Shown here in pieces: positions 7,101 through 12,813 of a stretch of DNA of 12,813 nt. Below the pieces are notes generated by a model. It worked only from the letters and a program-made list of their open reading frames with translations, was not told the DNA's origin and made no database searches. The position numbers were made by a program, and so were the translations under genes. Within the stretch, counting starts at the first letter, position 1. Each line of letters opens with the position of its first letter. This DNA is from Thermoplasmata archaeon (GTDB lineage: Archaea; Thermoplasmatota; SW-10-69-26; JACQPN01; JAJPHT01). Where the stretch lies: contig JAXDQU010000115.1 in NCBI GenBank assembly GCA_034667685.1, positions 1 to 12,813 of the forward strand, written 5' to 3'.

Positions 7101-9218
7101 CTAGAACTCCCAGCTCTTCTTCCGGTTCAGGTGGCGCGTCAGCAAGCGCGCCGTCTCTTCCTGCACGACATCCAGACCTGACTCCACAGCAAACCCTTCG
7201 CGCAGCGCGGCGTTGACGTGCTTGCCGAGGTCGTACTCCAGGAGCTTGTCGCGGATCAGCTCGTCGGCGCGGCGGTAGTCGCGCGCGCGTTCGACCTTGA
7301 GGCGCCCCTCCTCCTCGTACACGGGGGAGCGCGCGTCGCGGTGCCCCGTCCACGCCTTGCGGAAGCGCTCCGCGTGCTCGCGGCTGCGCACGGGCGGGCC
7401 GGCGTGCGTGACGGTGTCGGGAAGGCGCAGGCGCGGAAGCTCCAGGAGGATGCGAAGCTCGCGGTCGCCCACCTCGTACGTCGCGCGCTTGAGGTCGAAC
7501 TCGTGGCGCTCGAGCAGCTTGCGGATCGACTCGACGCTCTTGCGCATCTGGTCGTGCAGGTGGTCGGCGAGCACGTCGGGCGCCTTGGTCCGGACCAGGA
7601 GGAAGTCGCTGCGCCGGCGCCGCACGGCCAGCTCCAATTCGTCGGGCGCGCGCGGCACGAGCTGGCGCGGGAAGAAGAACTGCAAGCCCTCGCGCCGCAG
7701 GTATGCGCGGCAGCTTTCGGCGAAGTGCGCGAGCGTGTCCGCGCTCACCGCGCTCGCGGCGTTGCGCTTCGTGTCCACCGGATCGAGGAAGGTGAGCGGG
7801 TCGCCGAAGCGCGGCGTGCCTTCGAGGCGGTCCAGCACGAGGAACGTGCCCGGCTTCCAGCCCTGCGCCGCGCGCAGCACGCCGCGGAACGAGCCGTACT
7901 TGAGGACCAGCAGCTCGCAGAGGTAGCCGCTGAAGCCGCGCGTCTGCGCCTCGGCGCCGTAGACGCCCACGCCCTTCATGAACGCCTTGAGGAGGCGCGC
8001 CTGGTCGCGCTGCTCGCGGCTCATCCGTGATAGCACGAGGCGCGTGTGGAACGGCGTGCGGTCCACGGCCGTCATGCGCTGGCTCACGTCGGAGATCTCG
8101 TAGGCGGGCACGACGTCCGCGCGCACGCCCTCGAAGAGCCCGTGGATGTAGGGGTGCTCGGCGTACTTCTCCTCGGGGTCGTCGAGCACGTCGCGGCCCA
8201 ATTCGAGGCCCCACTGCTCCAGCTTCTCGCGCGGCACGTCGGGCGCGAAGAGGACGAAGCAGTCGAGGTCCACCGCCTGCTTGAGGTACGTGTCCTTGGC
8301 GACGCTGCCCACGAGCATGGGCTTCCCCGCGATGCCGCGCGCCGCGAGCGCTTCGTGCAGCCGCGCCAGCAGACGCTCCGCGCGCTCCACGGTGCGCTGC
8401 GCCTCTTCCGGAGTCGGCTTCACGCGCTGGAGGGCGAGGCGCTCGGTGCTGATGAAGCGCCCCGTGAAGATCGCGACGACGCCCGCCACCACGAGGCCGC
8501 CCAGCACGTCCACGATCCAGTGGATGTTGAGGTAGAGCGTCGCCGCCACGAGAAGGATGGCGTAGCTGTAGGCGAAGATCCGGAAGCCGCGGTTGCGCGA
8601 GTAGCGCGCGGCGTTGGCCGTGAGCGCGGCGAAGGCGACCTGGAGCGAGGGGAACGTGTTGTTCGTGGTGGTGAACGAGTAGTAGAGGTCGGCGAGCTGC
8701 GGGAAGAGGCCGAACACCGGGCTCTGCACGTGGTGGAAGAGGTAGACGTTCGTGATCGGCACTAGGAGATAGAACGGGAGCGCGAGCAGGTACGCCAGCG
8801 GGAACATCAGCAGGTACGCCTTCGCGGGGCGCTCCTCGTCGCTGAGCAGGTAGAGCAGGATCGGGAAGTAGAGCATCCACGGCTGCACCGCGATGTAGAC
8901 GATGCTGAAGAGCCAGTCGAGCGGCGAGCCCCAGAGGTGCTGGAGGCTGGGCACCGCGCCGCGTTCGAGCGCGTCGACCTGCGGCGCGAGGTCGTGGTAG
9001 GGCAGGCGCGGCGTGACGGCCTGGTCCACCTGCACGAGCAGGAGGTGCAGGAGCAGCACCGCGATGGCCGCGAGCAGGAACTTGCCGTACTTGTCGAGAA
9101 GGCGCTGCGCGTCCTTGCGGCCGGGCCACGTGGGCGTCTCCGGCAGGAAGAGGATCAGCCCGGCCCCGACCAGCAGGAGGTTGACGAGCAGCACCACGAG
9201 CCAGAGCGGGAGGTCCAC
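7101..9218 (-). CDS. cca: Fusion of an N-terminal PAP2/AUR1-like multi-pass membrane domain (~aa 1-255) and an archaeal class I CCA-adding enzyme (~aa 259-705)
   Basis: CCA motifs: RVKPTPEE, LVGSVAKDTYL...DLDCF, YAEHPY, DVVPAY, AVDRTPFHT, GVYGAE..TRGFSGYLCELL, DPVDTKRNAASA, HAGPP. Membrane domain motifs: FYLLVP, NTFPSLQ, LYLNIHWIVDVLGG. No stop codon between the domains. Confidence 0.93.
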   Translation of the reverse strand: MDLPLWLVVLLVNLLLVGAGLILFLPETPTWPGRKDAQRLLDKYGKFLLAAIAVLLLHLLLVQVDQAVTPRLPYHDLAPQVDALERGAVPSLQHLWGSPLDWLFSIVYIAVQPWMLYFPILLYLLSDEERPAKAYLLMFPLAYLLALPFYLLVPITNVYLFHHVQSPVFGLFPQLADLYYSFTTTNNTFPSLQVAFAALTANAARYSRNRGFRIFAYSYAILLVAATLYLNIHWIVDVLGGLVVAGVVAIFTGRFISTERLALQRVKPTPEEAQRTVERAERLLARLHEALAARGIAGKPMLVGSVAKDTYLKQAVDLDCFVLFAPDVPREKLEQWGLELGRDVLDDPEEKYAEHPYIHGLFEGVRADVVPAYEISDVSQRMTAVDRTPFHTRLVLSRMSREQRDQARLLKAFMKGVGVYGAEAQTRGFSGYLCELLVLKYGSFRGVLRAAQGWKPGTFLVLDRLEGTPRFGDPLTFLDPVDTKRNAASAVSADTLAHFAESCRAYLRREGLQFFFPRQLVPRAPDELELAVRRRRSDFLLVRTKAPDVLADHLHDQMRKSVESIRKLLERHEFDLKRATYEVGDRELRILLELPRLRLPDTVTHAGPPVRSREHAERFRKAWTGHRDARSPVYEEEGRLKVERARDYRRADELIRDKLLEYDLGKHVNAALREGFAVESGLDVVQEETARLLTRHLNRKKSWEF

Positions 9219-10689: not shown

Positions 10690-11562
10690 ATGCGCCTCGC
10701 CGGCCCGGTCGACCTCGTCGCCACGCTGCGCGGGGGCCAGGCGTTCCGCTGGGAGCAGGACGCGGAGGGCGCGTTCGTCTCGACGGTGGGCGCGCGCGCC
10801 GTGCGCTACCAGCCGGGGCGCGGGCTCGCGGTCCACGCGGAGGCCTGGCCGCGCGCGTCGAGGGCCTGGCACGAACGATATCTCGGCGCGACGGCGGAGG
10901 ACGACGCGGCGCTGGCGCGGCTGGCGCGCGACCCCGTCCTCGCGCCGGCCATCGCCGCGCATCCGGGGCTGCGCATCCTGCGCCAGGAGCCCTGGGAGAC
11001 GACGGTCGCGTTCCTCGTGAGCGCGAACAACCACGTCCTCCGGATCGAGGGCATCCTGCGCCGGCTCGCGGCGAAGGGCCCGGAGGTCGGCTCGCCCTGG
11101 GGCGCCCTGCATGCGTTCCCCGACGCCGCGACCCTGGCGCGCGTGCCGGAGCGCCAGCTTCGCGCGATGGGGCTGGGCTACCGCGCGCCGTTCCTGCGCG
11201 CCACCGCGCGGGCCGTCGCGGCGGGCGAGGTGGACCTCGATCCGCTCGTGGGCGCGCCCTTTCCCGAGATCCGCGAGGCGCTGCTCGCGCTCCCCGGCGT
11301 GGGGCCCAAGGTCGCCGGCTGCATCGCTCTCTTCGCGCTCGACGCCCGCGGCGCGTTCCCCGTCGACCGCTGGGTGCTGCGCGCGGTGTCCGATTCGTTC
11401 TTCGAGGGCGAGCCGGTCAAGCCGCGCGAGGCCGAGGCGTTCGCCCGCGCCCGCTGGGGCGAGGACGCGGGCCTCGCGCAGCAGCTCCTCTTCCACGCGC
11501 AGCGCGTAAGCGCCAAGAGGAGGGGCCCGGATGCGGCCGCGTGGACCCCCTCCTCGCGGTGA
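10690..11562 (+). CDS. ogg: 8-oxoguanine DNA glycosylase, OGG1 type (HhH-GPD)
   Basis: TLRGGQAFRW, GLRILRQEPWET, SANNH, GLGYRA, HhH motif LPGVGPKVA with catalytic Lys, FPVD with catalytic Asp, AGLAQQLLF. Confidence 0.9.
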   Translation: MRLAGPVDLVATLRGGQAFRWEQDAEGAFVSTVGARAVRYQPGRGLAVHAEAWPRASRAWHERYLGATAEDDAALARLARDPVLAPAIAAHPGLRILRQEPWETTVAFLVSANNHVLRIEGILRRLAAKGPEVGSPWGALHAFPDAATLARVPERQLRAMGLGYRAPFLRATARAVAAGEVDLDPLVGAPFPEIREALLALPGVGPKVAGCIALFALDARGAFPVDRWVLRAVSDSFFEGEPVKPREAEAFARARWGEDAGLAQQLLFHAQRVSAKRRGPDAAAWTPSSR

Positions 11563-11939
11563 GCGTCGGCCTCGTCCTCGCGGTGCTCGCGCTCGTCATC
11601 ACGATCCGGACGTACGCGGACCAGGTCGGCCGGCTGCGCGACCAGCTTCGCGAGCAGCAGGGCGCGCGCCGCGACCTGGAGGCCATGCAGGCGCGTCTCG
11701 CCGCGCAGTGGGGCCCCGTGCTGTCACGCTACCCCTACGACCCGCGCAACATGCGCCACGTCGCGGGCGCGCCCTTCGACGCCGTGCAGCTCGAGGAGGA
11801 CCGCGTGGTGCTCGTCGCGTTCCCGCGCGGCGCCCTCACGCCCGAGCAGGAGCGCGTGCGCGACCAGGTGCGCGCGGGGCGCGTCGAGTGGGCCGAGGTG
11901 CCGCTCTTCGCGCCGCAGGCGCCCCCTTCCGAGCCGTGA
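11541..11939 (+). CDS. Membrane-anchored Holliday-junction-resolvase-like (Endonuc_Holl) protein, apparently catalytically degenerate
   Basis: N-terminal TM helix and coiled coil, then QWGPVLSRYPYDPRNMRH..GAPFD...LTPEQERVRDQVRAGRVEW matching the family pattern. Overlaps ogg by 22 bp. Confidence 0.72.
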   Translation: MDPLLAVSVGLVLAVLALVITIRTYADQVGRLRDQLREQQGARRDLEAMQARLAAQWGPVLSRYPYDPRNMRHVAGAPFDAVQLEEDRVVLVAFPRGALTPEQERVRDQVRAGRVEWAEVPLFAPQAPPSEP

Positions 11940-11941
11940 TA

Positions 11942-12728
11942 TCACCCGTAGCCTCGGAAGACCTCGAACACGATGCGCTCGCGGCGGACGCCCAGGTCGA
12001 GGAGCTGCTGGCCCGCGCCCATGACCATCTCGCCCTTGCCGCACAGGTAGTACGCGGGATCGGCGAGACCCGCGGCGGCTTCCTGGAGGAGCTTCGCGTC
12101 GACGCGCCCGCGGCGTCCGGCCCAATCGCTCGTGGCCGGCTCGCGCGTGAGCGTGTGCACGACGCGGAAGCGCGGGTTCTGCGCTTCGAGCGCCGCGAGC
12201 TCGTCGCGGTAGGCAATCTCGCCCCGCGAGCGGTTGCTGTAGACCAGGACGGCGCGCCGGAGCGAGCCCGCGTCGGCCAGGTACTCGGCCATGCCCTTGA
12301 GCGGCGTGATGCCGATGCCGCCCAGCGACGTGCCGCCTTGGACGACTGCCGGCGGCACGTCGCGGCGCCGACGAACGCTTGAATAACTGCGGCGTTCGTC
12401 GAGCGCCCGCGACGAAGACCGCGTCGCGCGACTCGTCGAGCACGAAGTGGCCGTAGGCGCCGTCCACCTCGACCTCGTCGCCGGGGCGCAGCGCCGCGAA
12501 GGCCTGCTTCCAGGGCGAGTCGGAGAGGCGCGCGCCGAACTCGAGGTAGGGCTTCGTGGGCGAGCAGGCGAGGCTCATCGGATACTCCTCGCCCCCCTCG
12601 CTCGTCATGATCTCGAGGCCGCAGAACTGCACGGGACGGAACGCGAAGCCTGGCGCCTTCTCGACGCGGATCATGTGCGTGCTGGGCGTCAGGGCGCGCG
12701 AGACGAGGACCTTGCCGCGGAAGATCAC
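11942..12728 (-). pseudogene. FAD/NAD(P)-binding oxidoreductase (ferredoxin-NADP reductase family) interrupted by an 85-nt insert; pseudogene or recoded gene
   Basis: The 5' part (GTG 12728 ...DGAYGHF..AVFVAG) and the 3' part (GIGITP, LVYSNR, GRRGRVD, YYLCG, FEVF) are in different frames. Removing 85 nt restores a 233-aa ORF with VFVAGGIGITP. Confidence 0.88.
12319..12408. mobile_element. Two-hairpin insertion: 80 unique nt (12324-12403) flanked by a 5-bp direct repeat CGCCC
   Basis: Direct repeats at 12319-12323 and 12404-12408. Perfect 13-bp stem 12325-12337/12351-12363 and 10-bp stem 12369-12378/12392-12401, each with a 13-nt loop. Mobility is inferred, not shown. Confidence 0.75.
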
Positions 12729-12763
12729 GCCCGTCCATGGCGCTCGCTGCGCAAATAGCGGTC

Positions 12764-12813
12764 CTAGGGCTGGCTCTTCTGCCGCAGCTTGGCCAGCTCT
12801 CCGGCGAGCGAGC
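12764..12813 (-). CDS. 3' end of a gene truncated by the window edge (...SLAGELAKLRQKSQP*)
   Basis: Open frame with G/C-ending codons ending in TAG at 12764-12766; too short to identify. Confidence 0.45.
   Translation of the reverse strand, partial: SLAGELAKLRQKSQP

Follow-up and report, generated by a model that had tools for sequence, protein, structure and literature searches.

In the genome of a Thermoplasmata archaeon, a gene for an FNR-family flavin reductase is split by an 85-nt insert that carries two hairpins. The window (the whole stretch of DNA that was analysed, 12,813 nt) is an entire contig, C115, of this 3.48-Mb genome (G000; 124 contigs, 71% G+C, 99% complete). A domain search of the window supported the archaeal look of the genome, with a class-I CCA-adding enzyme and 2-oxoacid:ferredoxin oxidoreductase subunits. 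The insert was compared with assembled contigs of the public metagenome runs X1 to X4, and comparison genomes numbered 101 for the phylum in all and 21 for the class, both sets including G000. The gene lies on the reverse strand, and the features at the locus are the following.

12405..12728, reverse strand: first 108 codons of the FNR-family reductase gene (5' half), from the GTG start at 12728 to DAVFVAG, with GGC at 12407-12405
12404..12408, reverse strand: left copy of the direct repeat GGGCG, containing the GGC proposed as a 'take-off' codon; its 5 letters fit either side of the 85-nt joint
12324..12403, reverse strand: insert core, 80 nt, missing from 7/7 orthologous loci and from an X4 contig in which 12318 and 12404 adjoin
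12369..12401, reverse strand: hairpin 1, perfect 10-bp stem (12401-12392 with 12378-12369) and 13-nt loop (12391-12379); 47.1 bits against R1, a covariance model built from the two hairpins
12364..12368, reverse strand: spacer GCGCC, which in the predicted fold pairs with 12407-12403, including part of the left repeat copy
12325..12363, reverse strand: hairpin 2, perfect 13-bp stem (12363-12351 with 12337-12325) and 13-nt loop (12350-12338); 63.3 bits against R1
12356..12358, reverse strand: in-frame GTG in the 5' arm of hairpin 2, opening a 138-codon open reading frame (ORF; 11942..12358); candidate restart of the NAD-binding half
12319..12323, reverse strand: right copy of the direct repeat GGGCG, overlapping the proposed 'landing' GGC at 12322-12320
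11942..12322, reverse strand: 3' half of the gene with the NAD(P)-binding domain, from GGIGITPLK to the stop at 11944-11942; PF00175, E 2.7e-19
11724..12728, reverse strand: frame open from the start codon, 334 codons, of which 108 are genuine and about 226 out of frame; first stop at 11724

Gene halves and architecture of the insert

The host gene has the features of the FNR family, a flavin-binding barrel followed by an NAD(P)-binding domain that carries the GGxGxxP motif, and its orthologue in the comparison genome G003 is a 232-aa stand-alone flavin reductase of this family with PF00175. The 5' half aligns at 70% identity to residues 2-111 of this orthologue and gave no Pfam match when searched alone. 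The 3' half (NAD_binding_1, PF00175) aligns to residues 108-232. Because all NCBIfam matches were far below the equivalog cut-offs, we give the reductase no specific name. No paralogue was found in G000, where the gene is single-copy. In the nucleotide-binding fold, the insertion point separates the beta-strand VFVAG from the GxGxxP loop. An initial annotation of this DNA correctly placed the split of VFVAG from GIGITP, by exactly 85 nt and with a change of frame. The upstream frame ends GTC GCG GGC (12407-12405) and the downstream frame reads GGC (12322-12320), GGC (12319-12317), ATC GGC ATC ACG CCG; since 85 is 28 x 3 + 1, the shift between the halves is +1. Both halves are otherwise intact.

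On the mRNA strand one copy of GGGCG stands directly before the insert, which then runs CT, hairpin 1, the spacer GCGCC, hairpin 2, T and a further GGGCG. The inserted 85 nt comprise 80 nt plus the 5-nt direct repeat. The twin perfect hairpins with similar 13-nt loops are where the initial annotation had described them, and its other coordinates proved correct as well. Their loops have the same length and are identical at 9/13 positions, both stems begin with CGACG and finish with CGTCG, and the mid-stems differ by several substitutions and a 2-bp length change, with the pairing fully compensated. Judged from the loop consensus, the common stem base and the compensated stem differences, the two hairpins are related to each other. 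They are direct, not inverted, repeats because the loops read the same way on one strand. Beyond the 5-nt stem bases CGACG/CGTCG there are no terminal inverted repeats, and the insert is much too short to code.

The similarity of the two repeat copies reaches beyond 5 nt: CGTCGC-GGGCG (12414-12404) and CGTCGCTGGGCG (12330-12319) agree at 11/12 nt. A 5-bp stem extension that had been pointed out earlier, 12407-12403 with 12368-12364 and one bulged U, was seen in the minimum-free-energy fold, and the CGCC of the spacer, as read from the sequence, is also complementary to the GGCG of the right repeat copy. The matched GGC codons at 12407-12405 and 12322-12320 are likewise present; they match because they are part of the GGGCG direct repeat.

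The 131-nt region folds at -80 kcal/mol; shuffled sequences average -61.9 (sd 3.5), which gives z = -5.2, and 0/200 of them were as stable. Within G000 perfect stems of 10 bp are no commoner than expected by chance (181 real vs 206 in codon-block shuffles), and those of 13 bp are commoner (32 real vs 7). By hand estimate, the chance of the 9/13 loop match is about 0.004 at this base composition; a hand calculation for the 5-nt end repeat gave a uniform chance of about 0.001.

Filled and empty alleles and the search for further copies

One 5299-nt contig of run X1 covers 11900-12813, across the whole insert, with 0 differences; X1 is the likely source of the assembly, and hence not independent. 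Run X2 comes from a different sample and a different study, and a 282-nt contig of this run covers 12085-12366 with 0 differences; it links the downstream half of the gene with 47 nt from the 3' end of the insert, in which hairpin 2 is complete. The insert-bearing strain is present in two samples. An artefact of assembly or sequencing might be suspected from the closeness of the gene to the contig end and from the hairpins that break assemblies in this genome. Such an artefact, which the initial annotation had named as fatal to its proposals, is rejected because the X1 contig carries the whole insert and the X2 contig its 3' 47 nt, and we give it a very small probability.

The empty site was found in a close relative. 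In run X4 a 261-nt contig (record 27) of an approximately 96% identical strain joins 12318 to 12404 and skips 85 nt, which is the exact empty site. In run X3 (approximately 97% identical) one contig stops at 12323 plus 6 letters and another starts at 12404 after 17 letters; these would fit the empty site as two separate contig ends and not as a listed joint. Among the pieces listed, the depth of X3 is low in places along the insert (1.87 and 0.65), and both alleles may or may not be there. All 7 aligned orthologous loci (7/7), from the same genus out to the same class, read AGG(I/V)GITPLKGM uninterrupted, and one of them (L004) is at the insertion point exactly the window DNA minus 85 nt. The comparison of orthologues for empty sites that had been proposed earlier favours a recent insertion. 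Because the approximately 96% identical strain and all 7 orthologues are uninterrupted, the insertion is younger than the within-species divergence of strains, and its recency explains why both gene halves are still intact.

No further copy was found in G000, in its relatives or among the matches listed from the public collections. With blastn-short against the insert's own genome the element was covered by its self match alone, the remaining matches being 24 nt or less. A strict loop motif had 2 matches in G000, both in the element, and a relaxed one had 11, with stems at the element's two loops alone. With R1 the next best match in G000 after the two self matches scored 24.2 bits (E 0.11), and the best non-self match in the 101 phylum genomes had E 0.049. 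A twin-loop pattern was found in 1/21 genomes of the class, namely G000. The same pattern gave at least 119 stretches in genome_contigs and 24 in viral_contigs; among the matches listed, 0/175 loop pairs had element-like stems, and the closest of these pairs proved to be tandem repeats whose stems did not exceed 7. A single-hairpin pattern gave 47 stretches in metagenome_contigs and 1 in viral_contigs, in which the inner stems were not complementary (best 4/6); we set these aside as coding coincidences, together with a look-alike loop at C42:52100, which lies inside an ordinary reading frame. No blastn match to plasmids (10 records) or phages (2 records) covered more than 50% of the query (E 0.07-0.9). 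Rfam gave 9 matches at E up to 10, none near the gathering score (best 24.6 bits vs 41.2). The depth of 10.4 in X1 over 12334-12395 is that of the one contig which spans the insert, and no other X1 contig lies on the insert. The insert is an orphan: no second copy was found in the genomes and collections searched, for genome_contigs among the matches listed. The initial annotation would have counted many copies in conserved genes in favour of bypass, and mostly intergenic copies in favour of a miniature inverted-repeat transposable element (MITE) or a repetitive extragenic palindromic (REP) element; the single copy with no family favours an insertion that inactivated the gene.

G000 holds other twin-hairpin families, unrelated in sequence to the insert, with G+C-rich stems of 9-10 bp, loops of 3-5 nt and a spacer of 9 or 13 nt. 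It is also rich in long perfect hairpins: 194 have stems of at least 13 bp, where codon-block shuffles give 11, and the longest stem measures 65 bp. The long stems consist of 7-8-nt tandem units and form several families, whose copies vary in sequence with the pairing perfect; many lie at contig ends. A flanking direct repeat of at least 3 nt is lacking in 68/84 of the G000 hairpins with stems of at least 20 bp, and for this reason the long hairpins offer no model for the 5-nt repeat of the insert.

C113:12269-12324, C21:83104-83159, C28:54431-54486 and C64:22457-22512, in G000: twin-hairpin family of 4 copies
C120:999-1054, C35:13133-13186 and C79:68626-68681, in G000: twin-hairpin family of 3 copies
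C116:7292-7437, C89:32685-32807, C17:44232-44308 and C16:2230-2313, in G000: examples of long hairpins

Readings at the level of translation and RNA

In a programmed translational bypass, ribosomes would leave the take-off GGC at 12407-12405, slide over 85 nt and land on the GGC at 12322-12320, and an intact reductase with the junction peptide VFVAGGIGITPLK would result. The signals described for bypassing include a stem-loop at the take-off site, a stop next to the take-off codon, a landing codon that matches the take-off codon, flanking stem-loops and a signal in the nascent peptide (PMC7026636, PMC8211752). Matching codons and a take-off stem-loop, given as key signals of T4 gene 60 and the yeast mitochondrial elements (PMC7026636), are seen here, the take-off codon lying in the 5' arm of a stable stem-loop (12407-12403 paired with 12368-12364, at the base of hairpin 1). 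Rare codons after the take-off and two intact gene halves would also suit such a reading. However, the matched codons follow from the 5-nt repeat, the stem-loop was brought by the insert, and the intactness follows from recency. The codons after the upstream GGC are rare, as the initial annotation had supposed: the frequencies per 1000 in 913 long high-GC3 ORFs are 2.5 for GCT, 1.96 for CGA and 0.08 for TTA, the rarest codon of all. Any non-coding stretch in a 71% G+C genome would give such codons when translated, and tRNA-Arg(UCG) and tRNA-Leu(UAA), for CGA and UUA, are present.

Further features of the locus speak against a ribosomal hop. No stop follows the take-off codon, a point that had been conceded from the start: the next codons are GCU CGA CGA where gene 60 has UAG, and the frame does not close until 11724, 226 codons further on. 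Ribosomes would have to cross 85 nt instead of 50, a gap that contains four competing GGC triplets (12369-12367, 12350-12348 in loop 2, 12337-12335 and 12334-12332). Because the upstream peptide is ordinary orthologous sequence, a dedicated nascent-peptide signal is unlikely to have evolved. We screened 862 hairpin elements of G000, and 7 combined a frame change with open flanks; the other 6 resemble gene junctions by eye, which leaves the insert as the sole case. This screen argues that G000 has no population of gene-splitting hairpins, and the multiplicity of Magnusiomyces-type elements in the genes of one genome is not seen, with 1 copy in G000. Where a review of recoding in archaea from 2021 speaks of bypassing, its examples are phage T4 and yeast mitochondria (PMC8211752). 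We therefore regard a programmed bypass as very improbable. It would be a long shot to claim the first translational bypass element seen in an archaeon, a mobile two-hairpin cassette that brought matched GGC codons and a take-off stem-loop into a conserved glycine-rich motif, with the reductase still made; detection of the joined protein would make this the first ribosomal hop in archaea. The locus carries a caution, that a short direct repeat with a hairpin automatically mimics the 'matched codons plus take-off stem-loop' of a bypass element.

The insert might instead be an intron, of the archaeal bulge-helix-bulge type or otherwise self-processing, that is removed from the mRNA. It is highly structured, and an archaeal host would be expected to have the splicing endonuclease. 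The bulge-helix-bulge layout has two 3-nt bulges, with a 4-bp helix between them, at the two junctions. Over 40 start positions and both topologies, no 85-nt register gave the 4-bp central helix; the best had 3/4 pairs, with flanking helices of 2 bp or less. No Rfam family reached its gathering score, as given above, the size is far below that of group I or group II introns, and the insert is single-copy. An intron seems to us even harder to credit than a bypass.

Origin of the insert and likeness to known elements

We read the locus as a recent, strain-level insertion of a small structured non-coding DNA into the GGxGxxP codons of a single-copy FNR-family gene, which would create a null allele, and we put the probability of this reading at roughly 0.7. 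The inserted DNA would have come in through a transposition-like or site-specific event, which either exploited the 5-nt repeat or gave rise to it. Each hairpin may be an end, recognised by a protein, of a minimal non-autonomous element that has no parent in the assembly, and the repeat GGGCG may be a duplication or an end-mimic; with one copy, it fits a target duplication or a constant target plus the element's own matching end. Among the three readings offered by the initial annotation, the third, a recent inactivating insertion, is thus the one that we favour, and the bypass and the non-bulge-helix-bulge intron are left behind on the grounds of the single copy, the empty sites and the absence of any other gene split in this way among the 862 hairpin elements. 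The more exact form given to the third, a hairpin MITE with a 5-bp duplication, holds for the insertion and the 5-nt repeat and fails for a MITE in the strict sense, with no terminal inverted repeats, direct units and one copy.

Several observations weigh against an insertion of this kind. With one copy, mobility is judged from a single event, and the pattern search of genome_contigs, with its at least 119 stretches, could miss copies elsewhere. No transposase was tied to the insert: rve is absent, the sole DDE_Tnp_1 gene is without matching ends, and Y1_Tnp (PF01797) had 0 matches in G000 and in 0/21 class genomes, compared with 16/101 genomes overall. Metagenome-assembled genomes (MAGs) can miss insertion sequences. 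The element has no terminal inverted repeats, and the putative loss of function is read from the frame. Furthermore, a plain staggered-cut duplication predicts no similarity of the extent seen between the flank and the 3' end of the insert (11/12 nt). Such similarity may point to an enzyme with site specificity whose element mimics the target at its end, or to an insertion guided by microhomology.

One form that the insertion might take is a terminal-only derivative of the IS200/IS605 type, like the palindrome-associated transposable elements (PATEs) of haloarchaea, which the insert resembles most in architecture. Its hairpins would be subterminal palindromes, the left GGGCG the target and the right GGGCG its own end, with a Y1 (HUH) transposase acting in trans. 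In favour of this form, the hairpin units are directly repeated on one strand and alike in stem base and loop, the insert has no terminal inverted repeats and cannot code, and the spacer 5' of hairpin 2 is complementary to the GGCG of both repeat copies. This complementarity recalls the guide-to-cleavage-site pairing of the IS200/IS605 family. PATEs are described as carrying a palindrome near each end, the two being similar and oriented alike, together with a short target oligonucleotide and without inverted repeats, and terminal-only forms as small as 52 bp seem mobilisable (PMC3119063). However, PATEs are described as producing no target duplication, whereas 5 nt are repeated here, and the hairpins lie 1-2 nt from the ends, whereas a longer 5' distance is described (PMC3119063). 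No Y1 transposase was found in the 21 class genomes by the PF01797 search above, a TnpB-type domain was matched in G000 only below the cut-off, and the copy is single. We consider a PATE-like origin unlikely, if worth keeping in view. In a lineage in which no Y1 transposase was detected, the directly repeated hairpins would point to strand-specific recognition. More speculatively, the insert, with its two hairpins in 80 nt, might represent the smallest version of a family of strand-specific transposons in Thermoplasmata that is new to description and uses an enzyme other than the known Y1.

The insert might also be no mobile element at all and instead a templated patch or filler from repair or replication, made by microhomology-mediated template switching via CGTCGC(T)GGGCG. 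The 11/12 nt common to the left flank of the target (12414-12404) and the 3' end of the insert (12330-12319) would be accounted for in this way, as would a single copy with no family. No donor was found in the 3.48-Mb assembly, however: no stretch spanning an arm and a loop recurs in it, and the longest matches are 17-24 nt of G+C-rich stem or spacer. Mutually related hairpins with compensated stems are not predicted for a random patch. We hold such a patch to be rather doubtful. In our ranking, transposition-like insertion of an unassembled or foreign element comes first, with the PATE-like origin as one form of it, and the templated patch comes next.

If the insertion reading is correct, the normal product of the gene would be 108 genuine residues followed by an out-of-frame tail. 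The allele is probably null, or at best split, with a possible GTG restart at 12358. We infer that a single strain lineage, seen in at least two samples, carries a null allele. Precise deletion by slippage classically occurs at hairpins with direct repeats on either side; for this reason the insertion would be prone to precise loss, and the allele may revert. The locus offers a clean case of strain-level gene inactivation by a very small structured insert, with filled and empty alleles both in public metagenomes. If further two-hairpin copies were found, they would define a new minimal mobile element.

Other features of the window and the genome were noted beside the insert. The MAG contig and the 5299-nt X1 contig both end exactly at 12813, and a related-strain contig of X3 continues for 76 nt, so that a repeat, or a junction that varies between strains, may lie shortly upstream of the reductase gene. 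On the other side, a 132-codon gene (11541-11939, forward strand) is convergent with the reductase gene and is overlapped by the frame that reads on, out of phase, from the broken gene; it weakly matches PF10107 (E 2.3e-6), a family of endonucleases with kinship to the Holliday-junction resolvase of archaea. A 705-codon frame at 7101-9218 (reverse strand) carries PAP2-family phosphatase domains (residues 100-257) before a complete archaeal CCA-adding enzyme (301-681); this may be a fused gene, or two separate genes that share a frame and have no stop between them. With its intron search switched off, ARAGORN gave 48 tRNAs in G000, with none for Trp, Tyr or Glu(UUC); these may be intron-bearing or unassembled.

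Among known systems, T4 gene 60 and the Magnusiomyces byps elements share with the insert matched glycine codons round a non-coding gap in a conserved gene, a take-off codon in a stem-loop and a mobile origin, which for the insert is probable. They differ from the present case, with its missing stop after the take-off, its 85-nt gap, its competing triplets, its probable lack of a dedicated nascent peptide and its single occurrence. REP elements and REPINs are abundant and extragenic, whereas the insert is a single intragenic copy in a genome without a PF01797 (RAYT/Y1) match. The long intergenic hairpins of G000 have in common with the insert perfect stems, sequences that vary while pairing is kept, and a lineage-specific occurrence; they are, in contrast, single long hairpins of 7-8-nt tandem units in many copies.

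Prokaryotic MITEs are likewise small non-autonomous inserts with a short flanking direct repeat (5 bp in the present insert) and strong secondary structure, able to disrupt genes. Unlike them, the insert has no terminal inverted repeats beyond the 5-nt stem bases, its halves are directly repeated, and neither related transposase ends nor a second copy were found. In comparison with PATEs, 5 nt stand on both sides of the insert, its hairpins lie nearly at the ends, and it is a single copy with no sequence relative; the 21 genomes of the class gave no Y1 transposase match, and G000 has no TnpB match above the cut-off. The insert resembles PATEs in being tiny and non-coding, in lacking terminal inverted repeats, in its similar co-oriented near-terminal palindromes, in the short oligonucleotide at the insertion point and in a strain-specific insertion.

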